DNA of 64,000 nucleotides from Squalus acanthias (taxonomy: Eukaryota). How positions within the stretch are numbered: the first letter of the stretch is position 1; each line of letters opens with the position of its first letter. Positions 18,156-56,290 of the stretch are shown in pieces. The stretch covers positions 15,438,001 through 15,502,000 of the forward strand of contig CM059437.1 of NCBI GenBank assembly GCA_030390025.1, in the 5' to 3' direction. Position numbers and translations under genes: made by a program. The notes under the pieces were generated by a model, which saw only the letters and a list, made by a program, of their open reading frames with translations, was not told the origin of the DNA and searched no databases.

Positions 18156-18892
18156 AATAATTATATTTTATTGAGCCAGGCAGCCTTGGTTTCCAGACCT
18201 TTCTGACGTTGGCTCTTCTTCAGAAAATAATATTTGTGACAAATAAATTCCGATGATTGCAGTTCATTTTGATTACTGTTACAAAATTGTACAGCGACTG
18301 TTTGAAATTAAATACTGCATTAATGTTTAAGACTAGAGATTAATTAGCATTCATGAATAGCCTATATAATGTCTCCAGAGAAAGTGTGAAATTGATTTAC
18401 GAGGAATTTTCATCCACCTTCACTTGTGAAACTTTGGGAGTCGAAGCAAACCGGATTTTCAGCCTTAACCTGGTTCACTGCACTTTGTGAAAAATGTCCA
18501 CATGAGTATTAGCAACAGCCAAAGCTGCTGTTTGATGGTAATCCAATGAGAAAGGTTACTGGTAGTTACTATGATGACAAAAAAAATGTCAGTAATAATC
18601 ATATCTATCAAAACAAGTCTCAAATATATGAAATTATATCAATTGCATTCAAGTCAAACTGCGAGTGAAAGCATACCTCACTCCCAAACATGGAATCCCA
18701 GTGTGTACAATATCACTTCCCAGTCTATGTGGTACAGAAGTTCAATATAATAGGTCACAGACAGTATAAGTAGCTGTCATGTTGGCTTTAATTATTCATC
18801 ATTTGATTATTTTTTTACTCCTTTTTATACCATTTTCCCCCTTCTTAAGGTGATCACTCCTTGCCAGAATACAGTTTTTCAGGCACTAGTTA

Positions 18893-21462: not shown

Positions 21463-22485
21463 ATTGCTCATATTCAAGTAACATTGTGCTAAAGATTCCC
21501 ACAATGTAACATTGTAGAATGTCTACAATAACATCCTGTGCTTATAGATTTTTTAAAGAGAGCCTAACCTGTAGAATGCCAGCAGATCTACCAAATCTCC
21601 ACTTCTTTACCGGGCTGCTAACTGATCTAACCCCTTTTGTTTCCCTCCCTCAATTGTCACTGATGCTTGCCTGGATTCCAGGTGTCACAGTGGTTGCATC
21701 ACATGCAGTACTTGAGGAAATCATAAGGAAAATGATGAAGAAAATCCTTACAAAGGCAAACCATTATGTAAAACTAAATGTCATGGGGTCCCGATGTAAC
21801 GCACTTTCTCATGGGATCCATTTAGTCCATGTGGGTTCCTCCGGTTAATTGATAATGTTTGTAGCTGAGAAATGTCTAACTTGAAATACGATCAGAGAAC
21901 TGTGAAGTATGTCTTGACGGATCACTGCTCAGCCAGCAACAATTTGATGACTTTTTTCTTCCCTTTGATTCAATTTGGATTGGCTGATTATAATGGATAC
22001 ACTGCAACAAGGGGTTATAGTCTGTGAACTGGAAACAGTTCCAATACGTTTAGCAACATCTCACATCAATCCTCATCCTGCAAGTAGTTTTTCCTTCCAC
22101 AACAATGAATGGATCACAGATGGAAGGAGAGATTGACAGCAGATGGCTGATGAATGGTTAGGAGCTGAATATATTTGTATTAAACGAGGACAGAGGAAGA
22201 AGCAAGGCTGCCACTGAAATGGTGATTGATGAGAATGCATTGAAGGTGGTGGCACAGGAGATAGTTTACTGACAAGGTACTGGAGGGAATTCTCCAAGAA
22301 AATGCTGAAATGCCTGAAAAGTTAGGAACTGATTAAAGTTTGGCACTTAGTTAGCAATGATTTCAATTTATTTTCCTTTTAACACTATCATCTCTCATCA
22401 GTAGAATAAAAGGTGTCATTCATTGGGAAAAAAGAACTCTTACAGACTTCTTTAAGTGATCAGTAAGACACCAGCAGGCCCAGTG

Positions 22486-25029: not shown

Positions 25030-25561
25030 CCGCCAGACGCTATGTCCGACGGGTTCAGGGAGGCGTACGTGCGGCCGGGGCGGCGATATTTAAAGGGGAG
25101 GTGGCAGGCGGCCATTTTTGTTGCTGGCCGCCTGCCAGCACCTGCCCCCGTTGCTGTCCCCGGCCCCCGTGAAGCCCCCCCACCGTGAAGTGCCGGCTGC
25201 GCTCCAAGAGCCCGGCACTTCTCTTGAGTGCCGGGCTCTTTTGCCGGCACTCCCGATCCCTGGGGGCCCAGCTGGGCCCCGGTTCGCGCTGCGCAGGGTC
25301 CCTCCCCTTTAAGAAGGGGAGGAAGGCCTGCAATACCGCGGCGCGACGTGCCGCAGCGCGTGGCGCTGCGGCACGTAGCGCCAGGATATTCCCTCACAGC
25401 GCCCCAAGAGGGATGCGGGGTGCTTCCAGTGGCGCCCCGCTTCCCTCTTGGGGCGCAACCACTGAAGTTCCGGCGCGGGGCCGCTAATTTTTTCGGGGCG
25501 CTAAAAGTCGCGCCCCGGCGAGGTTAGCGCCCCAAATGGGGCGCGACTCAATTTTTACCCC
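25030..25561. mobile_element. CpG-rich Harbinger-type MITE, partial
   Basis: Right end caatttttacccc; interior related (inverted) to 23900-24100. Confidence 0.55.
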
Positions 25562-29007: not shown

Positions 29008-30250
29008 AACAACAACAACAACAATTTGCATTTATATAGCACCTTTAATGTAGTAAATGTAGTAAAACATCCCAAGGCACTTCACAGATGACCAAGCTTG
29101 GTCAAAGAGGTAAGTTTTAAGGAGCGTCTTAAAAGAGTTGAGAGAGGTAGAGATGCAGAGAGGTTTAGGGAGGGAATTCCAGAGCTTAGGGCCAAGGCAG
29201 CTGAAGGCAGAACCGCCAATGGTGGAACGAATAAAATCGGGGTGCGCAATAGGCCAGAATTCAAGAAGCGCAGAGATCTTGGAGGGTTGTAGGGCTGGAG
29301 GGGGGTTTCAGAGATAGGGAGAGGCGAGGCCATGGAGGGATTTTAAAACAAGGATGGAAATGTTAAAATTAAGGCATTGCCGGACCGGGAGCCAATGTAG
29401 GTCAGTGAGCACAGGGGTGATGGGTGAACGATGGGTGAAGAATTTTGGATAAGCTCAAATTTATGGAGGATGGAAGATGGGAGGCCGACCAGGAGAACGT
29501 TGGAAAAGTCAAGTCTAGAGGTAATAAGGGCATGGTTGAGGGTTTCAGCAGCAGATGAGCTGAGGCAGGGGCGGAGTCAGTTGATGTTACGGAGTTGGAG
29601 GTAGGCGGTCTTGGTGAGGGAATGGATATGTGGTCGGAACCTCTACTCAGGGTCAAATATGGCACCAAGGTTGCGAATGATCTGGTTCAGCCTCAGACAG
29701 TGACCAGGAAGAGGGATAGACTCAGTGGCTAGGGAATGGAGTTTGTGGCGGGGACCGAAGACAATGGCTTCGGTCTTCCCAATATTTAGTTGGAGGAAAT
29801 TTCTGCTCATCCAGTACTGGATGCCGGACAAGCAGTGAGACAGTGGAGGGGTCGGGAGAGGTGGTAGTGAGGTAGAGCTTGGTGTTGTCAGCGGACATGT
29901 GGAACCTGATGTGTTTTCGGATGATGTCGCCGAGGGGCAGCATGCAGATGATAAATAGGAGGAGGTCAAGGATAGATCCTTGGGGGACTCCAGAGGTAAC
30001 GGTATGGAAGCGAGAAGAGAAGCCATTGCAGGTGATTCTCTGGCTACAACTGGTTAGATAAGAATGAAACCAGGCAAGTGCAGTCCCACCCAGCTTGACA
30101 AGGGAGGAGAGGTGTTGGGGAGTATGGTGCGGTCAACCATGTCAAAGGCTAGAGACAGTTCGAGAAGGATGAGGAGGGATAGTTTACCACGGTGGCAGTC
30201 ACATAGGATGCCATTTGTGGCTTTGATGAGGGCCATTTCAGTACTGTCAG
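29008..30250 (-). mobile_element. L2-clade LINE, 5'-truncated
   Basis: Reverse-complement homology to 10500-11827; NFLQLNIGKTEAIVFG; (GTT)n tail. Confidence 0.9.
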
Positions 30251-31179: not shown

Positions 31180-31810
31180 CCCACATCTACTCCCGACCCT
31201 TTCACAGAGACACACTCTCCTTCTCCAACCCTCCTAGTTCATACTGACACTCTTATACCTCTCCCTCCTCACCCCCACCCCCACGTTCAAGCTGGCATTC
31301 TACTCCATCTCCACCCCTGATCAAATTGGTCATTTCACCTCTCCCCCACCCCCTACAATCATATGCAAAGTAGCACTCTTCCTCCCCTCCAGTTCAAACT
31401 GCCACTCTTTTCTCTCTCCAGCCCCTTGAGATCATGCTAGTGGTCTTCCAACCCCCTCAGTTCAAGCTTGCACACTTCCATCCCTCCATCAGTTAACGCT
31501 GCCTCCCCACTCCCTGTCACTGGCACTCCCCCTCATCCCCACCTCAAAACACTGTTTCAGCTTCTCCCCCATTCATTTCTGAATTTCTGATCCATTTCCC
31601 TGTCCCCTTCCTTCTCCTTTTCATTGGCATCTATTTCCTGCCCTTCGTTGCTGTCCATTTCCCTCTCCCCTTTCACTGCCATGAATTCCCCCTCTCCTTT
31701 GTTTCATTCCCCTCTTCCTTCTCCCTTAATTTCCTCCTTCCCTCTCCCTTTCATTGCCATCCACATCCCCCCACCCCGCCCACCTTCCCCCTCACCTCAT
31801 TGTCACTCCT
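31180..31810. repeat. Pyrimidine-rich low-complexity tract
   Basis: C/T-rich, with degenerate cagttcaa-ctg-cactc units. Confidence 0.6.
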
Positions 31811-32637
31811 ACCTGAGTCCTGCTGCCAGTACAAGTGATTCTGGCCATTGCATTCTGTACGCAGCAATTCCTGTTCTTGTGTGAATTCCTGCCTACAGTA
31901 TACAATGACTAGAATCACTTCCTCTAGCAGCAGGATTCAGGTTGGTGCAGCACTGAGGGGAGGCTAGCCCCATCACTCTGATTTTTGTTGGCAGACTTTG
32001 ACGCACAGACCGGATCTCCAAAACACTAAACATTAGCCGTTGTCAGGTCTGCTTACAGTGCTGATTGTCATTCCTTCAATTTGCATGAAAATAGAAGATA
32101 AACTAAAACAAGTGTTATCTGTCCCCTGATGTTTGTTTAAACTGGTGTTTTTAGTTCAGTAACAATAAGCATTTACAGTTAGGTTGAACTTACAATCAAA
32201 TATACAGAGTGGCTAAAAGAAACTATACTGGCTAAAATGCAATGATCAACTCTGCAGTAATTGGGCAAGAAAATGATCAACACTCGAAATATATAAGCCA
32301 AGATTTTTTTTAAAGAGTATTTGATCATGTATGTCCTTAATTGCCCAATAACATGGAGCCTGGTTTTTAAACAAATAAGCTTCAAAGTCATTCTTAAAGG
32401 CGCTAATAAATCTGGCATTAAGCTACTTTGATGGGAATCTATTTCACATATTTACTTTTCATTGGAGAACAAATCGTTCTAATCTCTATTCTTGTTGGGA
32501 GCTTGTCAGTTTTATACTTCACCTCCTCTTCTTCTGGGAACATAGTTGAAATAAATTGGCCTGCTTTCATCCATGATATCCATGCCTTCCAGCATTGAAC
32601 GACCTGGATCCTGTCCTATGTCAACCTTCTTCTCTCC

Positions 32638-33206
32638 ATGATGCGGAGATGCCGGTGTTGGACTGGGGTGGACAAAAGTGAGAAGTCGCACAACACCAGG
32701 TTATAGTCCAACAGCTTTATTTGAAATCACAAGCTTTCGGAGCGCTGCTCCTTTGTCAGGTGAAGTGAAGAAATGCATATGGGCACAGCATATATAGTCA
32801 GAGAACAATGCCAGACGACTACAGTTAATCTTTCTAACTGCCCTTTATCACACCTCGGCAGAGAGACAATCACGGCAATCAAAGGTGTGGATGGTGTCCA
32901 AACAGGTCAGTCAGGAAAACATTACATCAAAGACAATAGCTATCGTCTTTGATGTCATGTTTTCCTGACTGACCTGTTTGGACACCATCCACACCTTTGA
33001 TTGCCGTGATTGTCTCTCTGTCGAGGTGTGATAAAGGGCAGTTAGAAAGATTAACTGTAGTCGTCTGGCATTGTTCTCTGACTATATATGCTGTGCCCAT
33101 ATGCATTTCTTCACTTCACCTGACGAAGGAGCAGCCGCTCCGAAAGCTTGTGATTTCAAATAAAGCTGTTGGACTATAACCTGGTGTTGTGCGACTTCTC
33201 ACTTTT
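32638..33206. mobile_element. Fold-back (palindromic) Penelope-like insertion, family 1
   Basis: Arms 32674-32939 / 32940-33206 are near-perfect inverted repeats; extra tail 32638-32673; flanking ttcttctctc duplicated. Confidence 0.9.
33116..33153 (+). ncRNA. Minimal hammerhead ribozyme motif
   Basis: tcac-CTGACGA-a-ggagc/gctcc-GAAA-gctt-gtga; the mirror copy at 32727-32763 (-) has a mutated core, CTGACAA. Confidence 0.8.
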
Positions 33207-34077
33207 CTTCTCTCTAGTTCAAGCTGGCTCCAACCCCCTTGGATCATGTTAGCGCTCTTACAAGATCAATTTTGTTAGCATATCCTGGTAGGTCAACATT
33301 TTTAAACTTCCAGTTTCATTCTACGAACCTCCTCTCTGAATTTTCTTTCAACGCGTCGATGTGGTTTTTGACCACAAGGTACGTGAAAATACATAGAGGT
33401 ATTTCGAACGTGACCTTTCTGGGAATCGTCGGTTGAATTGATTAAAAGGAAATTACCTCATTGAATGGCTTAAATAAATTGAGCAAGTGAAGCTTGAATG
33501 CTTTATTATCATGTAAACCCTGAAGTGAGATTATTTCCGCTGTGATCACTCCCACTCCCATACACAGAGATGGCAGTATTGTATTATTGACAACTATCGT
33601 AAGTTACAGGAAAATATCACTGCTCTCTATATTGCACAAAAATAGCCGTCACATTGCAGTAACACTGCTCTTATCTCTGTTTGCTTGCTCCAAGTCTCAC
33701 ATCAACTTTTCTTGTTATGACTTTGAGAGCTAAAGAAGAAAAACTCAAAAGGAGGAGGAGGCAGTAGTAATCTCCCAATAGATTATAGATTATTGCCCGC
33801 GGTTGATTTACCTGGACGTTACTAAAGTGCATTTCCTGAGAAAATGTTAGCTCAGCAGGCAAGTCCTGGTTGACTTTTGTGAAGAACTGCAGAGTGATCT
33901 AGAATTTGGATCTGCTTGGCCAGTAGCTGAAACAAACTTCTGTTATGCACCTACAAGTTGGTCAGTGTCGCATTGTGTTATGCAGGTCACAACAGGCGCG
34001 TTCAAGAGTGCACCTCGTTATATATAATCCCTTAGAATTCGTGACCAGCAGCTTGAGCCTTAGGTTGCATTTACACC

Positions 34078-34212
34078 ACTGCTGCCAATCGAGTGTTCTA
34101 CATTACAACAGTGACCACACTTCAAAAGTACTTCATTGGCTGTAAAGCGCTTTGTGACATCCTGAGGCTGTGAAAGGTGCTGGCTGCATAAATGCAAGTC
34201 TTTCTTTCTTTC
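34078..34212 (+). mobile_element. Deu-SINE 3' fragment
   Basis: Matches 36830-36950. Confidence 0.75.
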
Positions 34213-35099
34213 AGGTGCATACACTCCTGCATATACTGTTTGTGGCTCCTGCCTGGTTGATGTTTTAAGTGCCTTTGTTTGAGAACGTGCTCTGCGCATG
34301 CCTGGGTGAATAGATGCACATCATTGTCTCCCAATAAAAAGAAATGTTTAGACAGTGTGGAGGGGGTAATGAGGTCGATTTTGACTTTTGGGTGACCAAT
34401 CGGTGGAGCACGCTAGTCGGCCGTTCCTGTTCAGAAGGTGAAAAAGCCCCAGCCATTTTGAGGCCCCGGCCTGATTTAAATTTTGCAGGCGATTTGCGGG
34501 ACACAGGCATCACCTCCGAGGATTCTTACCCTGCATTGCTTGGGAGTCATGTCACATTGACACTAAACTGGTAGTGTAACTGCACCCTTAGTAACAATGT
34601 TTGTAACGAGTTGTTGAAATTTCAGGGATCTCGGATGTTGTTGACTACACACACGTTGTATATGTAGCTCCCCAGAATGGCATAGGAAAGGTTTAATTGC
34701 ATGAATAGAGTGTGAAGTAAAAAAAAACATATTGATGCAAATTACCCTGCAGACATGCATTACTTCATAACGCTGCCTCTTTCTCCTCTATGTCTCACAA
34801 GTCTAGGGCAGACAAAACATTTGAGGGTTGGCTTTTGAGCGGCAGTGGAACAGATTTTCATCTACGGGTCTCAGTCTGTAATAAATGGTTAAGAACTGGT
34901 GTCAGTTGCGTGTGAGTGAAACTTAACGGAATGGAACCAGTTAAAGGAGACTGTCACTGTTACATTTTTAGGTGTTTCTACCCTCCTTTACTCCTCTTTC
35001 ATATTTCAGATTGCCCTCTTAGGAGATTCCCAGCTTCCCAGACTTTAAAAGCGTTAGCCTTAACTGAATAGTAACATGCTCAAGGTAGCGAACAAAAAA

Positions 35100-35700
35100 C
35101 CTACACTGGGGAAGCCAAAGGCAGATTGGGTGATCGCTTTGCTGAACACTTCCGTTCAGTCCGCAAGCGTGACCCTGAGCTTCCAGCCGCTTGCCATTTT
35201 ATTTCTCCGTCACACTCCCACTCTGACCTCTCTGTCCTCGGCCTCATACACTGTTCCAACGAAGCTCAACGGAAGCTTCGATTAAACACTTTACAACCTT
35301 CCGGACTCAACATTGAGTTGAAATTTTTCAGATTATAACCTCTGCTCCCATTTTTTCAGACATCAAGTGCTGGTAATGGTTCTGCTGTTGCCATTGACAG
35401 CTCATCTAGAGTCTAGACCCATCTTTTGTTTCTTTACTGGTCCCAGAACCACCCCCTTTTCGCCTTGCATCATCCTCCCTTTTGTCATTTAAACACTCCT
35501 GCCTTCCGCCCTATCACAGGCCTTCCCTTTTGTTCTTTCCTTCTAACCCTCTCTCTCTGCCTCTGTACCTGCTTAAAAACTGGTACATCCCTAACCATTT
35601 CCAGTTCTGACGAAGGATCATCGACCTGAAACATTAACCTGTTTCTCTCGCCACAGATGCTGCCTGACCAGCTGAGTATCTCCAGCAGTGCAGAAAACCT
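35100..35700 (+). mobile_element. Penelope-like element family 2, 3' fragment (GIY-YIG + pLTR)
   Basis: LGDRFAEHFRSVRKRDPELPAACHF...LQPSGLNIE; hammerhead motif at 35603-35638; end gatgctgcctgaccagctgagtatctccagca. Confidence 0.85.
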
Positions 35701-35939
35701 TTGTCTGTCAATTATTTTGAATCTACTGGAATTATTCTTGTGTCTCCACAAGCTCTCTCTCCAGTCTTCAAAAGGCAACAGGGCAGCCAATCAGACCTTG
35801 TTCTCATTTTAAAATACTAAACAAATATGCAACACCAACTTATTTGTAGTATGATGTGGAGATGCCGGTGTTGGACTGGGGTGGACAAATGTGAGAAGTC
35901 ACACAACATCAGGTTATAGTCCAACAGCTTTATTTGAAA

Positions 35940-35976
35940 TCACAAGCTTTCGGAGCGCTGCTCCTTCGTCAGGTGA
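35940..35976 (-). ncRNA. Minimal hammerhead ribozyme motif
   Basis: Exact reverse complement of 36129-36165; core intact. Confidence 0.8.
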
Positions 35977-36128
35977 AGTGAAGAGATGCATTTTGGCACA
36001 GCATATATAGTCAGAGAACACTGCCAGATGATTACAGTTAATCTTTCCAACTGCCCTTTATCACACCTCGGCAGAGAGATAATCACGGCAATGACTATAT
36101 ATGCTGTGCCGAAATGCATCTCTTCACT

Positions 36129-36165
36129 TCACCTGACGAAGGAGCAGCGCTCCGAAAGCTTGTGA
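36129..36165 (+). ncRNA. Minimal hammerhead ribozyme motif
   Basis: tcac-CTGACGA-a-ggagc-agc-gctcc-GAAA-gctt-gtga. Confidence 0.8.
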
Positions 36166-36626
36166 TTTCAAATAAAGCTGTTGGACTATAACCTGGTGTT
36201 GTGCGACTTCTCACATTTATTTGTAGTAGAAATCCTAAAGTTGCTAATCTGATTTGTAGCTAAATTGAACAACTCTTATATGAACATGTTCCCTCCTCCA
36301 TGACTCCTTCGGAGCTGTGGGCACCAGCTCGTGTCTTTAAGATCTCAGTTTGTTCAGTTCGACACACTCAGAGGATGATTACCCGTTTGATTCTTTTAAT
36401 AGCTTCTGACCTGCTTGCTTTAAATTCATAACTGCCAGCCGTGTTCAAAGAAAGTGCGCTCACGTTCCTGAACCAATCACAAAGTCTGTATGCATTTGAA
36501 TGTTAAACTCTCTTTCAGTGCTGTAGAGGTTCCGGGGACAGATTCCTCCTCCCGCTGCACGGCTGATTGAGTAGGAGCTTGCTGCTCCTAAAGTCTGATG
36601 GCAATGATGATGATATTTGGATTTTC

Positions 36627-36955
36627 GTCTTTCGGATGAGACGTTAAACCGAGGCCCCGTCTGGTCTCTCAGGCGGACGTAAAAGATCCACGGCACTATT
36701 TCGAAGAAGAGCAGGGGAGTTATCCCTGGCCTCCTGGCCAATATTTATCCCAATCAACATCACTAAAAAAAAAACAGATTATCTGGTCATTGTCACATTG
36801 CTGTTGGTGGGAGCTTGCTGTGCGCAAATTGGCAGCCGCGTTTCCTACATTACAACAGTGACTACACTTCAAAAAAGTACTTCATTGGCTGTAAAGCGCT
36901 TTGGGATGTCCTAAGGTCATGAAAGGCGCTATAGAAAGGCATAGCTTTCTTTTAT
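36627..36955 (+). mobile_element. Deu-domain SINE, 5'-truncated
   Basis: GTCTTTCGGATGAGACGTTAAACCGAGGCCCCGTCTG...; L2-type tail. Confidence 0.82.
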
Positions 36956-39900
36956 TGAGGTCATTAAAGCTATTTCGGCCCTGTGTGGCTATTCTTGGGG
37001 TGATGGAGGTTGTACTGACTGCCTGCTCCAAACTCCATCCAGACAGCTTGTCCAACTCTTTAACAGAGCTTCCTATCCTCAATGCCCAGGTGACAGTCCC
37101 TCCCTGTCCTGACTTCTGCCAGCACAGCCTCCGCAGATGCCCCAGTTGCTGGTGCCATGCCCAAAAACTGCTGCCTCCTCGGCCATTTTGCAGTGTCTGG
37201 TGCTGTAAACGCAAGGTACCCCTTTAGCTGGCTGATGCCTTTTAAAGGCTGCCTCGGAAATGCATTTCCCTCCCTTTCAGAGATGGTAAGCCAAACTGCC
37301 CAGCGTGGCTAATGAGGGTTCTGGCAGGAAATAGTGGTGGGTTAGCGATGGTTTCATGTTGATGGGCATTAGAACCAGCAGCCTGTCAACATGAGGAGAA
37401 TCCAGGCCCCATCTCCTAAAAGATAACCTGTCATTTGGTTAATGCTATAACAATACTCTCTGGGGTTCTGACACAGAATAAAACATTTCAGAGCTTCCAT
37501 TACAAAAGCACTTGGAGTCCATCTTCCATTTAAGGGTACCATTACATTGAAAATGATGCATATGCAATTTATACACATCTCATGGGACAGAAATTGTATT
37601 GTTGGCATAATTTGTTCCATACCTGCTTGTACAGTAGTGCACAATGTTGCTGTTTATTATCCATCTGGGTGAGGGCAATCTGGAAAACATCCTGAATGGC
37701 TGCTATTTCAGTACAGAGAGTTTCCTGAATTTCCACTATGCCAATCTATGTTGTTGTATACATCTCTGCTTCAGCAACCTGCATATTTCAGCCGCATCTG
37801 TGTTCCCTTGCTCCTACAGCTTAAGGAGTTCTTCGAGAGTGCTTGATGTCCTAATGCCTTTGGTGTTAACTTACTTAACTTTTTCTGTAGAGCTTCTTGG
37901 GACAGGTTCCTCCTCCCACTGCATGGTTGGTTAAGTAGGAGCTATGTTCTGTGAGATAATCCAACTTCAAAGTAAAGATTCCTCATGCCCTGTCAATAGT
38001 GTTGGTATTCGTATGGGCGACTGCACTCGAAGCTACAGATGGATTCCTTATCTGTAACTGTGCTTTTATTCCAGGGCTTACTTCCTTTCAACTGATATCA
38101 CATCTAAACAGTGTTGAAGTACTCATTCATGCTGTACCATGTAAAATATGACATGCTGTGACTGGGCTGCTTCTGAAGAACCATCCAGCATAACAGTTAT
38201 TCAGGCCTTCGCACGTGAAGCACTTATTTTGGATCCAAAACTAGAATCACGTCACCTTAAAACTAAAAGTTCCACCACTCCCTTTGTAAGCAGTGGTTTC
38301 CTGAATTGCTTTCAGACTATTTTCACGGTTTTGGAAGCAGTGCTAATTTATTTATTTTAATTTTAATTTTTAACTACATGACCTTTCACAACAGCTTGAA
38401 TCTAATAAAAGTATCAAAAAGATGACACTTCAGAATTAAACTATTTGTTATGTCTTGTAATCCCTTTAGGTAAGTGTTCTGCAAATAAGTCACAGAACAT
38501 CTTTGCAGTCTGGCAGTGAGACGGAAATCTTATACAGAAGACCATACCATTACTCTGTCAGTAGAATCTGATGCTGGAATTGCAACAGGACAGTGACTTG
38601 AACAATTTCAGTTGCAGACTTGGAGGAGCCAATTTCCCTGCCTTAGCTCCTTGTGCTTGCCAATTCCCAATGCGCTAGGAACATGAAATAGGAACAGAGA
38701 CCCATAACTCTGGGCCTCTGCCCCTTTTGCATATGATACAATTTTCTGGTGGGTGGGAGCGGGCGGTGTAGCTAGAGGAAGATGAGGCAGAAGTGTTATT
38801 CTGCATTTTTATGCACCCTTCCTGCAAGTTAAATGAATGGTTTATAGAACAGGGCATCCAGGGTTGCTAGGCCATAAGCAGTACAGGCAAGAAGATTTAA
38901 AGAGCCATAAATAAGATTCTTGCAGCTGTTTTTGAAGCCACTTCTGGCTTGATTTTCATCATTTTTTTTTTTGCTCCATGCACTTTGGTTCTCATGAGTT
39001 TTTGCGCCAATTGTTTTTTGTTTGCCTGCAGCACAATCACTGGCATCAATGGGTTCCTCAGTGGGATACCCGCCCCATCTGAAGTGCTGGGAAGAAGACG
39101 AGGAGGACCACTGAAGGAATGCTAGGCAGGTTGGGCTGTATGAGAGATGACTTGTGCCCATCCATTGGTACTTGGACATCTGCATAGAGTGGTGGCCGGA
39201 CCTCACTTGGGCACGCAATCATTGCATGTGGAAACACTAACTTTGAAGGTCGGCTATGACAGCAGGTCCGATTGTGAAGGCCTGACTAACTGTTGTGCTA
39301 GGTGGTTCTTCAAAGGCACCCCAATCACTGCATGGCGTATTTTACATAGTACTGCATCAAGAAGGCATCATCAGCCAACAAAGCTAGATTGCCCGCATCT
39401 TACAAGATCCTACCAAGCCTATTTGAAGACCTTGTCACAGCTAATGGACAATGAATGTGGAGATTAGGCCGTGGGTAAGTGTCTTCACAGAACCTGGGTC
39501 AACAGAGAGCCAGATGCAGAACTGTGCCATGGGCTGTAAAGGACACTCGCTGCCAACACCCGCCATAGGGCTGGCACAGTCAGTGACAGAACCAGTTAGC
39601 TGTGACCCAACCTGCACATGGGCCTTCTTTTCTCTTAGTTTTTGTTTGTCACTTCTTAATCCCCGACCCCACCAGCAAGGGCAAAGGCTCCTAATGGATT
39701 GGGATGCCTTTTGAACCTTTCTCAAGGCTTTCATAATTTTTGTTCCTCCCCCTTCGCCACTCTTTACCACTCTCAGCTTCTTACACTTTCTCCAGTCTGC
39801 ACCTAATTGGTAATTAATGTGCAAATGCAGTAACTTCTTGACACTCATGGGGAGCTTGAGGGTGAGCTGCCGTTTTTGCGAGGCTAATGGCGGAGCGGCA

Positions 39901-41721
39901 CAAATCATCCAGCAACTTGTGGCGATTTGTGACTTACGGGATATCTCTTCCTCGCCGCAAATTGCTGGATGATTTACACATTAATAACAGCGTGCGCGTT
40001 CTGGCCCAATACTACACGGTTAAAAACAGTAGAATAATTATAATGGTTTTCCCTTTAATTCTGCTGTTTTCAGCAATTCTACATTCATCAATGGGATAAC
40101 AAAACCCTATAAATAACAGACTCATAACACATCTTAAATTCTATCAAAACAAATAAAGCCACCAATGCAACATATGAATTTGTTTAATCTGTGACAACAA
40201 ATCACAAAATGCTTCGGTTTTGTGCAAACACTTCCTTCACTCTTAAGATCGAGGAAGGTGTGAGTTAGATGCATTTCCAAAGAGCAAGAGGCTCATTAAT
40301 TTTCATCATTGCAACCAAAATTGATTGGACAGCTAAAGTTACTGCTGATGATTCATCACAGAAATGAAAGTGAGCAAACCAGTAGACATATTGCTAGTAG
40401 CTTTCAATGAAAAATGTTCAATCCTTTGAGGTACGAATGCTACAAATAAAAGCGTATAGATAGGCAGATAAGGACCAGTCAGCAAGCAGTTCATTCAGGC
40501 AACATATTTGCAGACACGGGGTTAGCTTAATCAAGAGTCCTTTAGGCCTCAGTGTAACAGATGTAAGATGCACAGAAAGATAGATGGGCCAACTCAGTAA
40601 GCAGTGCTTTTAGACTGATCTATTAAACAGATACATCGACCAAGGAATTCTTTCAGGCTGTACTGTTGCAGACACAGCGATGCACAGATGGGAAACAGAC
40701 AGGATCAGATTGACCATCTGTATTACACCATTTCACTTTCCGTTGACTTCAATTAAAAATGGGCAGCCGATCTGATCGGGTTAGGTTAAACTGACCCCCA
40801 TAGGGCGGGACTTTCAACCTTGTAATACGGGCGGCAGTGAATCGGCCGACCATATACGCCAGGCTCAATTTTCTCTTCCATTGATTGGTGTTTAACAGGC
40901 AGCCGATCCACTACCGCCCGTATTACGCCCATGCTGAAGTTGAAAGTTGAATCAGTTCAGTGAAGAGCTCATAAAGGACTGACTGAAAATAAAATGGAAC
41001 CAATAACCAGTGTATGAATGGCTAAAAGGCATGGGATTCTACACTCAGTGTGAGAGATGTGTAGCCAACCTGGAATACATTTTATTTTCATTTCATTTCA
41101 GAATTCTTATGAATTAAATATTCTGAATTATCGAATCATTAATACAGATCTTTTCTCAACAAGGAATTCCGACGAATGATACAAAAGCAAGAACTTGCTT
41201 TATTTTATTTTAATCAAATTCACTTGACTTAAAATTCAAATTTTGCACATTGCTGGTATTCACATGCTGCCTGTGGCTTAGTTGAGAAGAGATAAATAGG
41301 TATTAGCTATTAACTGACACTGATAAATTGGGCAAAAGACGAAGCATTTGGTTCACTTCAAGTAGCTGAATTATGAATAATTCATCACATGTGCTCATCC
41401 ATAAATCAAACCAGCACAGGTCAGTGCACACAGCTCCCTTCTACAAACATACTCATGCTGTTTCTTTGACATGAAACGTAATCTTCAGCTACTCTCTTCT
41501 TTGTACTTGCATAAATATAACATGAGATGTGTTATTGCATTAGTTCTGAGGTGATACTTTAAGGCCTAGGGCTCTTTATTAGAGGGATTTAATTGTAATC
41601 CTTCCTCAACTTTCATTCGAAATGACTAGAATATTCATGTGCATTCAGTGAACACGCTTTATACTGAAAATGGATCACACAAACACACGTATACGCACGC
41701 ACGCACACACACACACACACA

Positions 41722-41884
41722 CCCGATCCCCATATTCCTTGATTCCCCATGAGTTCAAAAGTCTATCTATCTCAGCCTTGAATATACTCAAAGACTCAGC
41801 ATTCACAGCCCTCTGGGGGCAGAGAATTCCAAAGATTCACAACCCTCTGAGTGAAGAAATTCCTCCTCATCTCAGTCTTAAACA
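41722..41884 (-). mobile_element. CR1 3' fragment running into the gap
   Basis: Similar to 12965-13120 and 59930-60070. Confidence 0.8.
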
Positions 41885-42028
41885 NNNNNNNNNNNNNNNN
41901 NNNNNNNNNNNNNNNNNNNNNNNNNNNNNNNNNNNNNNNNNNNNNNNNNNNNNNNNNNNNNNNNNNNNNNNNNNNNNNNNNNNNNNNNNNNNNNNNNNNN
42001 NNNNNNNNNNNNNNNNNNNNNNNNNNNN
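41885..42028. other. Assembly gap
   Basis: Run of N. Confidence 1.
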
Positions 42029-42983
42029 ATGTTTTAAAATTCTAAAATAAGATCTTTAGGTGAATGGAATTGCAATGGATCTTAGAACAGACATTTCCAC
42101 AGTAAAAATAGTTTGCGATGTTAGTTTTTTATAAGAGGATCACTGAAAAGAGCAGTACTATCCAATGCTACTACGGGCTTGCTACTCAAGGAACGCTTAT
42201 ATGCTTTCATGCTCAAATCACAACATTTCAGCTTTGATACTGATAGCGTAGCAGTAGCACACTGAATATAGACCTTGCACTCAGTAAAACTGTACTGGAC
42301 ATCAAACATCATTGTAATATATTGTTATTGAGAGAAACCCAGCTAATCAGATACTGTGAAGCTTATAATTGTTACTGTGATGATTAATATTCTGTTGACA
42401 ATTGTTAAGAATGAACTGATCTTTATAGTAATCACCAATATTTAATCTTATGGTGGCATTGACCATATCTTTTCAATTGTAGTTAAAGAACACCGTGTTA
42501 GCAACACATCTTTGTGCCCACTTTGGTCTGTAATGTCTTTGACAAGTAAGACTTAAGTTACATTAATAGTCCTGCTGTTGACTCATTTAGTTTGATTTTT
42601 AATCAATAAACTCGGGCTGGATTACATAGCAGTCTGAAGTGGGTCAATTCAAACATTGTAGCTGGAGCTTTCTGCTTCTGTGTTTGCTCATCCACAATTT
42701 TCTGCCCAATAAAGTAAATGGGTGAAAAATCACAGGCTGATGGCTGCAGAAGCTGAAAACTCCAAGCTGAAAACTTCAAACCTGAGATATCCAAACCAAT
42801 CTAATCCTCAGATCTGAGCTTATTGGTGGAGGAAGAAGAAGCATCTAATAGTCCTCCACTAACATAGACTGCCTACCGGAATTTATCAATACTTTTGATA
42901 CTTCTGATATACTGAGGTATTGTTCCAGACCGACCCTTTGTCTTTAGAACATGCGGCAGTAATAAAGTGTGTCCTATAGCAAC

Positions 42984-43961
42984 ATGAGAAGTCGCACAAC
43001 ACCAGGTTATCGTCCAACAGATTTATTTAAAATTACAAGCTTTCGGAGCTGTTGCCCCTTCGTCAGGTAAAGGTACAATGAGGGAAGCTACAATATTACA
43101 CAGTATATAAACACAAAAAGCAATTTGTCTGCAGAGATACAATCTTTCGGGAGGCATTACATCAAAGACACATCAGAGCACAGCCAAGACAATGAGATGG
43201 GTCACAGGGGGTCCAACGTGTCAAATCCTGCTGTCTGCAGTTGAGCTTTTAACCTTTTTTTTCCCCCTTTTTGTGTTTTTTTGGGGGGGGTTTTGTGGGT
43301 TTTTTTAAAAACTGGAAAGATAGACAACGATGTCGAGTCACGTTCTGTAGCGTGACATGAACCCGATATCTCTATTGAGGCCATCCTCATGGGTGTGGAA
43401 CTTGGTTATCAGTTTCTGCTCGATGATTTTGCATTGTCGTGTGTCTCCAAGGCCGCCTTCGAGACACACGACAATGCAAAATCATCGAGCAGAAACTGAT
43501 AACCAAGTTCCACACCCATGAGGATGGCCTCAATAGGGATATCGGGTTCATGTCACGCTACAGAACGTGACTCGACATCGTTGTCTGTCTTTCCAGTTTT
43601 TAAAAAACCCCACAAAACCCCCCCCAAAAAAACACAAAAAGGGGGGAAAAAAAGGTTAAAAGCTCAACTGCAGACAGCAGGATTTGACACGTTGGACCCC
43701 CTGTGACCCATCTCATTGTCTTGGCTGTGCTCTGATGTGTCTTTGATGTAATGCCTCCCGAAAGATTGTATCTCTGCAGACAAATTGCTTTTTGTGTTTA
43801 TATACTGTGTAATATTGTAGATTCCCTCATTGTACCTTTACCTGACGAAGGGGCAACAGCTCCGAAAGCTTGTAATTTTAAATAAATCTGTTGGACTATA
43901 ACCTGGTGTTGTGCGACTTCTCATTTTTGTCCACCCCAGTCCAACACCGGCATCTCTGCAT
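42984..43961. mobile_element. Fold-back Penelope-like insertion, family 1 (~470-bp arms, includes GIY-YIG C-terminus)
   Basis: Arms 42984-43453 / 43455-43924; tail 43925-43961; TSD ctatagcaacatg (42974-42986 / 43962-43974). Confidence 0.92.
43838..43875 (+). ncRNA. Minimal hammerhead ribozyme motif
   Basis: ttac-CTGACGA-a-ggggc/gctcc-GAAA-gctt-gtaa; mirror copy at ~43033-43070 on minus strand. Confidence 0.78.
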
Positions 43962-44027
43962 CTATAGCAACATGGGCATGCATATGCATGTGCCTGAGTG
44001 CTTTGCATGCTGCCACAAAAACAGTAC

Positions 44028-45182
44028 TGAGGGCTGACCTATTAGAGGTCTTTAAAATTATGAAAAATTTTGATAGCATGGATACAGAGAGATTGGCCCA
44101 GAAATTCGCCTCTCCGGCTTGCCGCGGGGGTAAGGATCGCGTGCGCTCTTACCTACCGCGCCTGCCGTTGTGTTTTGGGCCCACGGGAACTTCGGGTCCT
44201 GGGCCTCTCCCAACTGCCGGCGCGCAGTGCTTGCGTGTTCCAGGGGTGTAGTTAGTGCGATGCGTTCCCTGGGATCACGTGGGTCATGGAGAGCCAATGG
44301 CAGCAGACCATCTTTCATTCATAGATTTGACAGGAGACCTGTCAAATCTGTGAATTGAAATCGGCCCCAAAAGAACAGCTAAACTTAAAATATTTTTTTT
44401 TAAAACCATCGCATTTATAAAATAACTATAGTTAAATAAATTAACCACTTTAAACAAAAATTTAAATTTTTGAAAAAATTAAAATACTTTTTAAAAGTGA
44501 TAAAAATAAACTTACCTTGCTTTAAAGTATCTAAAAAAGATAAACCTGTTGAAAAAAATTTAAAATTATACTTAATTAACCACTTACCTTGTTCAAAACG
44601 GGTCTTGTGCCTCCTTTTCATTAGTGTAGTATCTTCAATGCTTACCCTCGCGTAGAAACCTGAAAAAAAATCTAAGTTTGCTGCGTGCGCGCAGCCTCTA
44701 CCGCGCACGCGGTTCACCTAGGAACTGCCCCCTTCACCATACCGGAAGTTCCGGTTTCCCGCGCATGCGCAGTGCATGCAGGAAACCGGCACTTCGGGAA
44801 GCAATACAGGTGAGTACAGAGCGCGTACTCACCCGGGAAGGGCCGAATTTTTGGGCCAATGTTTCCACTTGTGTGGAAGAGCATAACTAGAGGCCATCAA
44901 TATAAGATAGTCACCAAGAAATCCAATAGGGAATTCAGAAGATACTTCTTTACCCAGAGAGTGGTGAGAATGTGGAACTTGCTACCACAGGGAGTGATTG
45001 AAGCGAATAGTATAGATACATTTAAGGGGAGGCTGGACAAACATATGAGGGAGAAGGGAATAGAGGGTTATGCTGATAGATTTAGATGAGAAAAGAAGGG
45101 ATGAGGCTCGTGTGGAGCATAAACGCCGGCATGGACTGGTTGTGCCGTATGGCCTGTTTCTGTGCCGTATATCCTATGTAGT
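44028..45182 (+). mobile_element. CR1 3' fragment, split by a MITE
   Basis: LRADLLEVFKIMK before the MITE and MFPLV...TRGHQYKI...FFTQRVVRMWN after it. Confidence 0.85.
44095..44857 (-). mobile_element. MITE family B
   Basis: TIRs ggcccagaaattc / gaatttttgggcc; reverse complement of 17395-18155. Confidence 0.88.
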
Positions 45183-45778
45183 ACCAAGGTGAGAGGAAAC
45201 TCTTGTTGGTATCAATTATAAGGGCAAATACTAAAAGCAGGCAAAGTTTGGCACTCATACCTTGGCGATCTTCGAGAGTCTGGAAAATGTCTTTCTCATC
45301 TGCTCCTATGATCTACAGACAAGGAATAATGTGTTCATTTGGTTGGCCAAGCTATTTCTAACATTACTGCGGTTCATCGGGTGCCCCTCAGCTGTGAGAA
45401 AGCAACCTTCTTTTGTAACACTTCCTGAAGAAAGACCTTCAGACCAACATCCTCAAATGGAGAATTCCTACTGCTGTCCTGCCTTGCTTCTATCTTCAAC
45501 TGCTAGCAGCAAGGCTTAATTTTTTTTTTAATTGTGCAGTGCTTTAACTGTGAGCAGCAGCCCTTTAAGATCTGCTGGCTTGCCAGATATCTCACTCACG
45601 CACCCAGTGCTCTCCCCATCCATCAGCCAAGCTGTGCTTGGAACAGATGATTATTAAAATGAGCTGACCTTGGGAACTCGCACTAGGTCAGTCTCGATGC
45701 TACCTGCACACTTGCGTACAATGAATTACAGAACCACTGACACTATGACGGGACTGTGGAATTGTCCCGTTAATCCTT

Positions 45779-46530
45779 GGGCCGAAAATTGATCCCGGGA
45801 CGCGAGAGTACGCACTGCGTACTCTCGCGTATTCCCACTCCAATTGCCGGTTTTCTGCATGCCCTGCGCATGCGCTGAAAACCGGCAATTGCTCTTCTGA
45901 AAAGGGGGCGGGTCCTGGGTGCATCGCGTGCATCGCGTGCGCGCTACAGGCTGCGCGCACGCTGTGCACTTCATGCTTTGGACGCGCAGGTAAGTAGGGA
46001 AGATTTTGGAAATGTAAAAAGGAGGAGTAAGACCCGCTTTTAAGAAGGTAAGTAGTGAATTAAGTATTTTTTTGAATTTTTTTTTACAGGTATATCTTTT
46101 TTAGAGACTTTAAAGACAGGTAAGTTTATTTTTATAACTTTTTAAAAGATTTAAAAATTTTTCAAAAATTTAATTTTTTATTTAAAATGGTTAATTTAAT
46201 TAACTATACTTATTTTATTAATGTGATGGGTTTTTTTTTAATTGAATTGAGGTTTAGCTGTTATTTTGGGGGGGTGTAAGATTCATAGATTTCACAGCAG
46301 GTCTGTGAAACTTATGAATGGAAGATGGTGTGCTGCCATTGGCTCTAACTGAGTCACGTGATTCCACAGCTCGCACGAATTCACTACGCCGCTGGGATAC
46401 GCAAGCCCAGCACAGCTGATGTCTGGAACATCAAGTTCGTGCGAGCTGGATCTGAAAAAGCACAAGCGAGGTGAGACATCGCGGGGAAGGCTTACCCCCG
46501 CGGGAACAGAGCGAGATCAATTTCTGGGCC
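45779..46530 (+). mobile_element. MITE family B, diverged subfamily
   Basis: TIRs gggccgaaaattgatc / gatcaatttctgggcc; TSD CTT. Confidence 0.85.
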
Positions 46531-47242
46531 CTTGTGTTTCGATTGCTATCACCAATTGAATTTGTTTCCTTAAGCTCGATTCATAGCTGAATGATGTAAA
46601 AATGGAATCAGCTTTATTTTTTGGGTTGAGAAACCTAGGTGAAGGGTCGAAACCGTCGTGAAGAGTGCCATGAAGTCTAAAAATAGAGGAAAGCATGCAG
46701 AGGTGAATCAACAGTTAGTGGTTAGGTGATGACACGTCTGTGTTTTAAAGACCGATAAATTGGAGGAGGAAGGTAAGACTAATGGGAGTAAAAGGGTTAA
46801 TTTTCCACTGGCATGCTCTCAAATAGTGCCTGTAAAATGGGTGCAATGCAGATGAAAAATGGCCACTATTCCTTTGTTGCCATTCAGTGCCTGAGTAGCG
46901 CTGCACCTGAACTTCCTCTATGGCTTTCCTGGTCCACATCTGACAGCACCTGAAGAAGGCACTCCTGGAAGAATTGTGTGACAGTCCTTCTGATGGGACA
47001 TTAGATTGCAATCCTTGGGGTACAACCCCTGGGAATCACCCTCCTTCTATTCCAGCTCCAGCCACCTTTAGATTGTGGTAGCCCTGCCTTGATCAGGCTC
47101 GCTCCTCAAAGCAGGTGAGCTCCCTGATGGAGGCTTGCCCACCTCAAGTCCCCTTTGATTGTGGGCTGCTTTCTCCTGTAAGAGATAAAACAGGGTTGAA
47201 GTGAGCAGTGCCAGTTACCAAACCCATGTGAGAACTAAATCA

Positions 47243-47340
47243 AGACAGAAAATGCTGGAAATACTCAGCAGGTCAGGCAGCATCTGTGAGAGACACCGAG
47301 TTAACGGTTCAGGCCGATGACCCTTCATCAGAACTCATGT
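47243..47340 (-). mobile_element. Penelope-like family 2 3' end with degenerate hammerhead (GAAA mutated to GAAC)
   Basis: Reverse complement of 49062-49158. Confidence 0.75.
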
Positions 47341-48430: not shown

Positions 48431-48824
48431 ATTCACTGGGAGGTACAGAAAAGCAGCGTGAAGTGACTTTCCTCCCCTGGTCTTTGCCCGTCATCTCTCC
48501 AATGTCACACGGCTGAACTTTAATAACTCATTAAATTGGAAATTGCACACAAGAAAGCCGCAACGTAGCACGCTATGGGAGAGTGTATTGAGCTCCACCA
48601 TACTGACTCCAGTAAACAATCATGGGCAGTCACTCACTCGAAGGAGCAGAAACCTGGTGGCTGGAAGACCAGCTGCTTAGCTGCTGGCCAGGAAATAGGA
48701 CTTCACAGGACGTGCCTACAAATGAGGCATCATATCTGAGCATTCTGTCCTGGTCCGCAGTTCCATTTCATCCTTCGCCTCATCCGGCGCTTTAACAAAA
48801 AACTTTTTTTCTTCCTTTCAGGTG

Positions 48825-49162
48825 TCAAGGATCGCAAGCTTCAACAACTCTTGGACACCAATGCCCCTCCGGAACCTTCCATCCTTTGTTTCTTAACCTG
48901 TCCCATTACCATCTCCTTTTGCCTTGAATATCTCTCAATGTCTCTTAACCTCTCCTGCCTTCTATCCGATCACAGACCTTCCCTTTTGTTCTTTCATCCA
49001 CTCCCCCCTTTCCCAGCTTCTGCACTTGCTTAAAAATCTGTTCCATTTCCTGCTTTTTTCCAGTTCTGACGAAAGGTCATCGACCTGAAACGTTAACTCT
49101 GTTTCTCTCTTCACAGATGCTGCCTGACCTGCTGAGTATCTCCAGCATTTTCTGTTTTTATA
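48825..49162 (+). mobile_element. Penelope-like family 2 3' fragment
   Basis: Similar to 35300-35690; hammerhead agtt-CTGACGA-aaggtc/gacct-GAAA-cgtt-aact at 49062-49098. Confidence 0.8.
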
Positions 49163-52881: not shown

Positions 52882-53725
52882 GGCCTGGATTTTCATTGAC
52901 CCGTGGAGTCGGGTTTGGAGGCGTGTGGGGGGTTAAAGTTGCAGATTCGGGGGTCCCGAACCCATCCCGCCCCCAACCCGCCTCCATGCCAGTTTCGCTG
53001 GCGGCGGGTACCCAACCTGTGCTGGGACCCGCCTCCCCGAGGCGGGAAGGGATTAGTGACAATTAACTGCCTGTTAACAGGTAGTTAACAGGCAGTTTTT
53101 TGCCTAATCCCTATTTTGAAAGCTGAAATGTGGGCTTCCCGACAGGTCCCAACCACTCCAAGTTAGCGAGGCGGACCGTGGGTCTGCAGGGGTTGGAGGG
53201 GTCGATATGTCCGGTGGGCAGGTGAGTGATGGGTGCATGTGTGCAGAGGTAAGTGTGTAAGGTAAGTGCAAAGTGTGGGGAAAAGTTTTACTTACCTTAA
53301 CTTCCTCCTGCAGGTGTCAGCCTTTCAGTTCTCGGGAGTCAGAAATCTCACTGGCACAGAAAGCAGAAAGGCCGTGGTGCTGTCAAAAACTGCAGCCTCT
53401 GTTTTCTGTGCTGGAATGATTTCTAACTCAGCCTGAGAGGAAGGACTCAAGTTAGAAGACAAATTGTCAGTGTTTGACAGCTTCACAGAGCTGTCAAACG
53501 CTGATATTTCATCTGTCAAAAGCTCTTAACAGATGAAATGTCAATCTGTGACGTCACCTGTTGCCGGGTGGCCCTCAATTGGCCTGCTGAGCTCACTGGG
53601 CGGGCTCAACAAGGTCAATCAAAGTGAAAATGCAGTGGGTTGGCCACAAGTCGATGGAGGCGGGACTACAACCCAAAAAGTGGGAGTCCCGACTCCATCA
53701 CGTCCCCAGTATCAAAATCCAGCCC
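52882..53725. mobile_element. MITE family C (Harbinger-type)
   Basis: TIRs ggcctggattttc / caaaatccagccc; TSD AAA. Confidence 0.85.
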
Positions 53726-54279: not shown

Positions 54280-56290
54280 GGGCCTAGAAATTCCAGTGCG
54301 CCGAAAAGCTGCCGGTGCCGGCGCCACAGTTAACGGCCGCCCACATTAATAGCGGTATTTTGGTGCTGCCCGCTGATTAACATTAGCACAGCGCTAAACC
54401 TACCGTGTAAGGCTGGTTTTCAGGCGTTACTCTCAGTGGGAGGCCCAATGTCGTGTGGTCGTAGCGTCCCTGGAGGAAGAACAGCCTTATCTTAAAGCTA
54501 GCCTGTCATTGCAGTGTCGGTCCCTTAAAGGGGAACTGCTTTCTATAATTAAAGAAATAAAAATAGGCAGATTTTAGCTCTTAGAACGCAACTGCCTTCT
54601 GAAAAAAATAAACATTAAAAGTAATTCCCAAATGGCAGTCTGCAGCTCCTAAAGCTAAATTGCCTTCCGCACTTAAAAAAATGGTAAAAGTGCTTCAGCA
54701 TTAGCACAAATGGCTCAACAAGCCAGGGGCACTCAGGGTCTCACACACAGCACTCCAGCTTTGTGCAGGGGGCCAACACTGAAAGAGAGGTCCTCTACCC
54801 ACTGGAGCCAGGAGGCCCTCCAGAAAGAACGATGTGAGACCAGATCACCGAGGCCGTCACTGTTGGTAATGTCGCCCCCACCACCTGGCTCCAGTGCCCA
54901 AAGAAGCATCATGACCTCAGACCAGTGGTCAAGGTCAGTGAATGCATCTTCAAAGGCCGTCTCCTACCAACTGCGCCACTAGCCTCACACAGTGCTCAAT
55001 GCATGACCATCGCTCACCTACCAACAATCTCTATCAAACACATGGCACACTTCCCATTCCTAGCTTCACCTCACCCCCTTGGAGGAGGTGCTGCTGGCCA
55101 TTCTTGGCAGGAGCATGGCTGAGAACTTGGCCAGCGGCGAGGCTGAAAGGATACAAGATGCTGCTATCTTCAAACACTATCCTCCTCCTTGCATGCACCT
55201 CTTGCTTTCCCGCCCTCCCCTCACCACAACTTCATCCTTGTGCCTTCCTCATTTCACACACCCAAGAAATGCAGCCTTCCCAGCCAATGGTTGACCAAGA
55301 AGAAGGAGAGGAGAGTGAAGAAGAAGAAGAAGAAGAAACACCATCACTCGATTTCACACTCCCAGCCACCAACTCTTCAAGGCCATCCTGCAAGGCCATT
55401 TGCAGTGTCCTCCACTGAAAGTCAGCAGCCTTCCACCAACCATGCTGCAGCCACTAGGGTAGTACTGTGTGACATCAGTAGGATAGGCAAAGGCACACAC
55501 AAAACAGTCATTACGGGAATGCATAAGGGTGATTAGTTGATTTCTTGATGTCTTATTGGATGGATAGATGTATAAAGTTGGATTTGAAAGTTTACTTTGT
55601 GGTGGCTTTTATTTCAGCATTGTGGCTAAGAGGATGCTGTGATGGTCAGTAACAGAGGGAAAGTAAGGTGTGGGAGAAATGTTGAAAGGGGTTGTGGTCA
55701 TTGGTACCGCAGACGGATGATTCCATCCTGGATATCCCGGCCAGAAAGGGACTGTCTGGGTTGCATCCTCCTCTTCTGCGCCTTCCACTTCTGCATCTTC
55801 CTAGTCTGTGTCTTCCTATTCTGCATCTTCCTCTTCCCTCTGCGAGCGGATGCTGGAAATCTGAAATAAAAGCAGAAAATGCTGGAAATAATCAGCAGGT
55901 CAGGTAGCATCTTGACCTGTGACGTGAATTCTGTTTCTCTCTCCACGGATGCTGCCTAATATGTTGAGTATTTCCAGCATTTTCTCTCTTCTCAGCAGCC
56001 TTCCTTTACCATCTGAGGCCTTGCAAGCATCCAGCAGCACTCGCTGCACACTTTAAAAAAATTTAACATTTATTGCACCAAGCCATTACTACAATAAAAT
56101 ATAGAAAGTCCTGTCCAAAAGCTGAAATTCAAACTTACCTGAAAGATGTGTGTGTCCCTTTAAGTAGTGCTGACAGTGTCTCTGTTTGCTGCATGCTCGC
56201 TTCTCTGAGCGAGGTTAGGACCGAAATGCTCGAAAAATCACGAGGGCCTCTCAAAATAGGCTTAGAGAGACCCTTAACGAGCATTTAATT
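54280..56290 (+). mobile_element. Non-autonomous Harbinger-like element (family A)
   Basis: Left end gggcctagaaatt; decayed Myb-like and acidic coding remnants; homologous to 8790-10390 and 1-235. Confidence 0.65.
55851..55986. mobile_element. Miniature inverted Penelope-like family 2 insertion
   Basis: agaaaatgctggaaataatcagcaggtcaggtagcatc is inverted against gatgctgcctaatatgttgagtatttccagcattttct. Confidence 0.7.

Follow-up and report, generated by a model that had tools for sequence, protein, structure and literature searches.

Head-to-head units in the window

The stretch analysed here (the window) comprises 64,000 nucleotides of Squalus acanthias DNA (GenBank assembly GCA_030390025.1, contig CM059437.1, positions 15,438,001 to 15,502,000 of the forward strand), and coordinates below count from its first letter. 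It contains three units, A, B and C, in which the 3′ end of a Penelope-like retrotransposon is present twice, head-to-head, and a fourth, plain copy, D. The three close inverted pairs were located by self-comparison of the window. A blastn search with the shared 3′ end gave seven arm matches, a pair in each of the three units and a single one in D.

Unit A is bracketed by a 10-bp target-site duplication (32627-32636 and 33205-33214, plus strand). Its minus-sense arm consists of a 37-nt 3′ tail, limited to this arm (32637-32673), and a paired part (32674-32939) with a hammerhead-like motif at about 32727-32763. The tail-less arm on the plus strand (32940-33206; hammerhead-like motif at 33116-33153) has its final 2 nt in common with the duplication. 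The apex lies between 32939 and 32940 with a loop of 0 nt, and the arms differ at 5 of 267 columns, two of these differences being no more than 17 nt from the apex.

Unit B lies within a 12-bp duplication (35840-35851 and 36217-36228, plus strand). On the minus strand, a 35-nt tail with 1 nt more in common with the duplication (35852-35886) is followed by the paired part of the arm (35887-36013) and by a 78-nt spacer of native element sequence that extends the tail-bearing arm (36014-36091). The spacer meets the plus-strand tail-less arm (36092-36218; hammerhead-like motif at 36129-36165) with a 1-nt junction overlap at 36092. The final 2 nt of this arm are common with the duplication, and the arms show 3 differences in 127.

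Unit C has a 13-bp duplication (42974-42986 and 43962-43974, plus strand), the last 3 nt of the left copy being common with the element. The tail-less arm on the minus strand (42984-43453) contains the end of the endonuclease open reading frame (ORF), the 3′ untranslated region and a hammerhead-like motif. The paired part of the tail-bearing arm on the plus strand (43455-43924; hammerhead-like motif at 43838-43875) continues into a 37-nt tail with 1 nt more in common with the duplication (43925-43961). There are 7 differences in 470 and a 1-nt centre at 43454. Copy D (7631-8128, plus strand) is a plain 5′-truncated, tail-less insertion of the C-type subfamily described below, with an 11-bp duplication (7620-30 / 8127-37).

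The first-pass annotation had reported three head-to-head units with arms of 266, 127 and 470 bp and flanking duplications of 10-13 bp, one insertion event for each unit, and fold-back in three of four copies. Self-comparison and a check of the junctions bear out the first statement, and the last holds within the window, where D is the single arm. Arm-to-arm identity is 97.6-98.5%, and 4 of the 15 arm differences over the three units are CpG transitions, a pattern of ordinary decay. An abutting match of at least 10 bp was found for 2 of 5000 random junction pairs, and one duplication brackets each whole unit, so that the units are supported as one insertion each and as three independent events. 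For none of the four copies does the window contain a paralogous empty site. The annotation had also called the units loopless or near-loopless, which fits A (0 nt) and C (1 nt) but not B with its 78-nt spacer.

Identity of the element

The four copies had been assigned to one family. A and B are a sister pair of 94-97% identity without coding sequence, and they have only the last ~125 nt in common with C and D, at 87-92% identity. The copies thus fall into two subfamilies, A/B and C/D, and the single-family claim stands for this shared 3′ end but not for the whole arms, where A/B and C are 61-68% identical (one short arm, 78-80%).

The 3′ remnants of the ORF comprise the last 55 codons in D and the last 41 in C (43445-43567, plus strand), the latter forming the C-terminus of the GIY-YIG domain. 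Searching with the D peptide matched 15 proteins among 24 candidates, and the named ones are all from sharks. The best match, P0001, is a 643-aa protein of Heptranchias perlo, found at 93% identity in the peptide search; the 55 codons of D are 91% identical to it, and C is 79% identical over the aligned stretch. Its protein cluster has 54 members. In Pfam, P0001 carries RVT_1 (E 5e-9) and its relative P0004 carries GIY-YIG (E 2e-5); the C and D window peptides on their own matched no Pfam family. The Penelope-like identity proposed earlier is supported, indirectly and through C and D, by remnants that match shark proteins with reverse transcriptase (RT) and GIY-YIG domains.

By published definition, endonuclease-bearing Penelope-like elements have a zinc motif, CCHH, whose two cysteines lie between GIY and YIG, and Neptune elements have a CX2-5CxxC linker between RT and endonuclease, which is reduced in Nematis (PMC8557442). 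P0001 has YIDD and DKG motifs, a CX4CxxC linker at residues 505-513, and two cysteines between the GIY-YIG motifs (residues 542-559), a region that the window copies do not retain. Judged by these motifs, the element is probably a Neptune-type Penelope-like element, to which C and D would be assigned through their match to P0001. A PDB sequence search with P0001 gave 0 matches.

A minimal type I hammerhead pattern, with core, stem II and a stem I of 3-4 bp, is predicted in all seven arms from the pattern only. There is one core change, in the tail arm of A, and stem I shows compensating changes between A/B and C. Rfam returned no hammerhead among its five matches to the window. All five were weak matches to microRNA precursors, below the gathering scores; four lie on these palindromes and cover all three units, with scores far below that threshold. 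A microRNA gene was rejected as an identity. A miniature inverted-repeat transposable element (MITE) or other DNA transposon was rejected as well, since the outer ends are unequal and the apex and length vary by unit, as against equal terminal inverted repeats. A non-LTR retrozyme was likewise rejected: no direct tandem hammerhead array exists in 31500-45000, the only row there being a 14-bp repeat.

No full-length copy, with the ORF between two pseudo-long terminal repeats (pLTRs) as in a source element, was found in the window. Scans of bacterial and archaeal genomes for stray copies gave 30 pattern matches, none confirmed, and motif scans gave 7 matches of only 19-26 nt each, taken as chance. 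Some shark gene models, namely isoforms of XRCC5, FAM210B, septin 5a, FAM204A and DIPK2Ab (P0002, P0011, P0014, P0015, P0023), match or cluster with the element protein, for which exonisation or annotation error is suggested.

Unequal arms and two fixed 3′ ends

The architecture described as shared by the three units is so in being head-to-head with a duplication, but the arms are unequal. In all three units, one arm extends 36-38 nt beyond the other at the 3′ end. D lacks this tail. Counted from one T-run, the short arms of A, B and C end at −4, 0 and 0, and the end of D lies at +1, all within a 6-nt window; the tail-arm ends cluster within ~4 nt. By a naive estimate, the chance of three DNA-copy ends falling within one 6-nt window is 9e-6. 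The earlier statement that both junctions derive from element 3′ ends is correct as far as it goes, but the two junctions are two different 3′ ends of the element.

At all four tail-less ends, the first bases of the duplication continue the element in register (2 nt in A, 2 in B, 3 in C and 2 in D). The naive chance of this is 7e-6, a figure that any T-rich target preference would inflate. The overlap at the tail ends is 1 nt in B and C. In D, which is not inverted, the tail-less end must be the one that was primed. In all three units the tail arm contains the whole of the tail-less arm, and in the two informative units, B and C, the native read-through also belongs to the tail arm.

The insertion ends lie ~57 and 91-94 nt 3′ of the predicted hammerhead cleavage site, and are therefore not set by the ribozyme. 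The tail is complementary to an upstream stretch of 8-9 nt (within 32638-32725, 35852-35985 and 43880-43961), which places the internal end within a possible stem-loop. This pairing appears in 4 of 5 minimum-energy RNA folds, with z-scores of only −0.8 to −1.9, too weak to be used as evidence. The tail of unit A terminates in ATG (32637-32640), which may be the ORF start of a next tandem unit.

Fold points

The apex of unit C (43444-43464) lies on a 21-nt quasi-palindrome native to the element, as D, which gives the native sequence across the fold, has it in its LQGGLR codons. With 9 of 10 pairs, this site is top of 499 sense-arm positions, the next best having 7, and in the independent copy D it is joint best, one of 2 positions out of 479 at 8 of 10 pairs. 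The C fold is thus sequence-directed, a property required alike by snap-back of one cDNA and by annealing of two cDNAs.

At its three asymmetric positions the apex mixes the two orientations, reading C/C/C on the plus strand where sense sequence alone would read C/G/C and antisense sequence alone G/C/G. The base at the centre turns a Gly codon into one for Arg. Of 39 relatives printed, 36 show this codon, as Gly in 35 and as Ser in 1, and none has Arg. No point mutation would be needed for C/C/C if two antisense cDNAs formed a heteroduplex that was then repaired in opposite directions. Both C arms (43445-43567 and its mirror) also share three amino-acid changes relative to D and P0001, two of them CpG-type, reflecting either a decayed source moved in trans or later arm-to-arm conversion.

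The other folds differ. In B the join has the 1-nt overlap, and the spacer continues the tail-bearing arm. A and B, although 94-97% alike, fold at different points, and C folds within the ORF.

A second family with the same layout

Another head-to-head unit, at 55851-55985, belongs to a second Penelope-like family, unrelated to the first, and consists of a tail arm of 61 nt (minus) and a tail-less arm of 78 nt (plus) that overlap by 4 nt (55908-55911). Its tail is one-sided, and each arm has sequence absent from the other (~35-40 nt and 23 nt). Because each has such private sequence, neither arm was copied from the other, barring later deletion. At the corresponding spot of a paralogous host repeat (~8900-9400) there are ~95 nt of different sequence, which suggests a target deletion upon insertion. 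Other copies of the second family lie at 35019-35690, 47237-47335 and ~48820-49160, with a GIY-YIG-like remnant at ~35080-35320 and hammerhead-like cores at ~35600 and ~49065.

In a predicted protein, P0010, ~21 residues of antisense tail arm are joined directly to sense endonuclease sequence. Protein searches for further tail-arm fusions gave no second example. Among the 13 matches of a representative search, two of high identity (P0045 and P0047) have the antisense tail-arm peptide without the sense arm. The fusion check covered these two; the other 11 matches are of 30-42% identity, in many stretches.

One priming or two

We modestly favour the reading that each unit is one insertion of a 5′-truncated Neptune-type Penelope-like retrotransposon by two primings rather than one. 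The GIY-YIG endonuclease of the element would nick the two target strands 10-13 bp apart, as the duplications suggest. Each nick would then prime reverse transcription on element RNA, one at the internal T-run and the other ~37 nt further 3′ at the tail end, if the in vitro result for a lizard Poseidon element (PMC11167929) can be carried over. Both cDNAs would be antisense and truncated early, and could be joined only at self-complementary sites of the element, either directly on a native quasi-palindrome (C, perhaps A) or by microhomology (B and the second-family unit). Alternatively, one cDNA might snap back and its sense copy pair with the other cDNA. Fill-in and repair would leave the order duplication, tail, arm, apex, arm, duplication, which is the layout seen, and failure of the second priming would leave a plain tail-less copy such as D. 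A more specific version, in which a dimeric RT-endonuclease twin-primes at two programmed start sites and the antisense cDNAs anneal at native micro-palindromes, leaving heteroduplex scars such as the mosaic at 43444-43464, is tentative, and we put it at somewhat less than an even chance.

Two observations speak for two primings: the fixed end common to the short arms of A, B and C and to D, with the tail arms reaching 36-38 nt beyond it, and the in-register overlap with the duplication at all four tail-less ends, D included. The C/C/C apex, the private sequence of each arm at 55851-55985 and the P0010 fusion also appear to support it.

The earlier proposal was that a truncated cDNA snaps back and is copied. 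In an amended form, a single cDNA starts at the tail end, truncates, folds back and is copied; bound protein or the endonuclease stops or nicks this copy at the T-run, and microhomology of 2-3 nt joins it to the other target end. We consider this doubtful, though several observations agree with it. The self-complementary fold of C is as proposed: the 3′-paired DNA hairpin at the apex, at −4.8 kcal/mol, ranks second among the 40 stops, out of 494, that have a paired 3′ end. Exactly as snap-back predicts, the tail arm of every one of the three units contains the whole short arm, and in B and C the tail arm also carries the native read-through. The tail has been ascribed to endonuclease-mediated resolution (PMC8557442), and the fly endonuclease requires the tail for recognition (PMC11167929). 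However, a DNA self-copy of one cDNA would be expected to end at any position or to run out to the terminus; the fixed short-arm stop, shared with D, is left unexplained by the original proposal, and the amended one has to assume a further programmed stop just where this plain copy ends. It also predicts C/G/C at the C apex, where C/C/C is observed, leaves B with a 78-nt loop held by a single paired nucleotide, and makes the 55851-55985 unit impossible without later deletion. That the palindrome was made beforehand, by self-priming on antisense RNA, or inherited from a source with an inverted pLTR and a 5′ palindrome, and then inserted whole, we judge unlikely. Self-priming has been proposed, with palindromes of 18 and 38 bp at pLTR 5′ ends (PMC3846280), and two of the five arm differences of A are close to its apex, but A and B are nearly alike yet have different fold points, and the fold of C lies within the ORF.

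Quite improbable, in our estimate, are two separate insertions at each site, or an inversion or replication error after a plain insertion. The asymmetry of B and the changes common to both C arms would be consistent with such remodelling. Against it, one duplication surrounds each whole unit, the outer ends are exact element ends, and the two arms of a unit resemble each other more closely than they resemble the sister unit (between A and B there are 3 fixed and 1 further disjoint difference in 127 nt). Fold-back reads are a known sequencing artefact, so that an error of assembly or sequencing comes to mind, but it is very unlikely, almost to be dismissed, because the inversions end at element ends and have unique flanks; there are also the duplications and the 15 sites at which the arms differ, with their four CpG transitions.

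Several points weigh against two primings. Besides the containment and read-through just mentioned, the 2-3-nt overlaps fit end-joining equally well. The lizard paper reports priming without homology (PMC11167929), and its in vitro data, from another clade, Poseidon, serve by analogy. The mosaic apex is a single case noticed post hoc, for which one point mutation suffices, and the changes shared by the C arms, implying a decayed source or homogenised arms, weaken the apex reading further. The B junction, where the overlap is only 1 nt, could be a later deletion, and the A apex lacks native upstream sequence for comparison within the window. The 55851-55985 unit has no clear duplication and is old, its arms being mismatched at 7 of 39 nt. 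P0010 is known from the predicted protein only, and a splice could yield the same fusion.

If the more specific version, with a dimeric RT-endonuclease, is right, the tail, the inverted arm and the target duplication would be linked in one step without antisense RNA, and the short shark copies would be a very large natural record for testing it. The units themselves are read as insertion scars without further function; transcription would give a long hairpin RNA. They seed near-perfect palindromes of 0.3-1 kb, which could give hairpin RNA or be mis-annotated as MITEs or microRNA precursors.

Other features of the window

A dispersed non-coding repeat of ~770 bp occurs at 17387-18158, 44092-44864 and 45777-46406, one copy beginning 120 bp from unit C, and has an internal palindrome (17892-17937, 44313-44360 and 45841-45891). 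An isolated G+C-rich hairpin with arms of ~30 nt and a 45-nt loop, at 40820-40928, gives a weak microRNA-precursor match. Short imperfect palindromes unrelated to the units lie at 25332-25456 and 53502-53543, and 144 N lie near 41880-42030. Many decayed fragments resembling RT and endonuclease of long interspersed nuclear elements, judged by eye from translations, are at 1-6400, 10500-11700, 20100-21500, 29100-30200, 56500-57300 and 62500-63200.

Comparison with known systems

The first-pass annotation had suggested that fold-back may be a routine integration product of this family. This is not new: the layout, its frequency and the self-priming idea are already in print (PMC3846280, PMC8557442, PMC2377424), the layout being described as typical, with self-priming, in the first two. 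In Adineta vaga, Pen2a_Av and Pen2 have an inverted copy beside the direct one, a 9-10-bp duplication around the unit, a 31-bp tail on one arm and a palindrome at the junction, and self-priming was proposed for this layout in 2013 (PMC3846280). Endonuclease-bearing Penelope-like elements often have an inverted truncated copy at the 5′ end and a 30-40-bp tail, often at one end (PMC8557442). The commonest Penelope structure in Drosophila virilis has inverted terminal repeats that vary in size, and there is a repeat of 34-37 bp (PMC2377424).

The inverted-pLTR insertions of A. vaga and the shark units are alike in the 5′-truncated inverted arm, the head-to-head order, the one-sided tail and the single duplication. 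The A. vaga units hold an ORF between the pLTRs, whereas the shark units are two truncated 3′ ends only. The A. vaga paper, in the available passages, relies on antisense RNA as template, and it draws no connection between the two ends and a pair of priming sites (PMC3846280). The general accounts (PMC8557442, PMC2377424) put the tail down to endonuclease resolution and, in their available passages, give no junction-by-junction account of apex or microhomology. The passages at hand of PMC12910113 and PMC8969392 add nothing on mechanism. An explicit model of twin priming at two sites was not found in a literature search that did not reach the main subscription papers on Penelope structure.

The nearest biochemical system is PAc, the Poseidon element of Anolis carolinensis, whose protein, a predicted dimer, cleaves and extends both strands, with two RT start sites that bracket the tail (PMC11167929). 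PAc and the shark copies alike have a hammerhead upstream of an AC-rich 3′ region, and the distance between the beginning of stem II and the tail end is 114-116 nt in the shark copies, compared with 111-118 nt in PAc, an approximate match of position. PAc differs in that it belongs to Poseidon whereas the shark element appears to be Neptune-type, and the shark copies have no ATG at stem II. No homology between primer and template is reported for PAc, whereas the shark ends show overlaps of 2-3 nt, and the available PAc text contains no model for inverted units.

In L1 twin priming, both target nicks prime and the products join head-to-head by microhomology, and self-annealed 3′ ends can prime inverted duplications (PMC10191854, bioRxiv 10.1101/2024.12.14.628481). 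L1 twin priming serves as a working analogy, but the inverted segments that it yields from one RNA do not overlap, and L1 fold-backs copy DNA of the flanks; the shark units have the same 3′ end twice, with fixed starts. The shark arms share with the minimal hammerheads of Penelope-like elements and non-LTR retrozymes (PMC4209133; bioRxiv 10.64898/2026.07.22.740005) a type I core, stem II, a short stem I and palindromic 15.2-16.2, without helix III, but retrozymes are direct tandem arrays and the shark units are inverted.

How integration is completed and how tandem and inverted structures form is an open question for Penelope-like elements, the sister group of telomerase (PMC8557442, PMC11167929). 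The shark units belong to the known Penelope insertion type. What they add, through their unequal ends and the mosaic at the C apex, is junction-level evidence that separates snap-back of one cDNA from twin priming at two sites.

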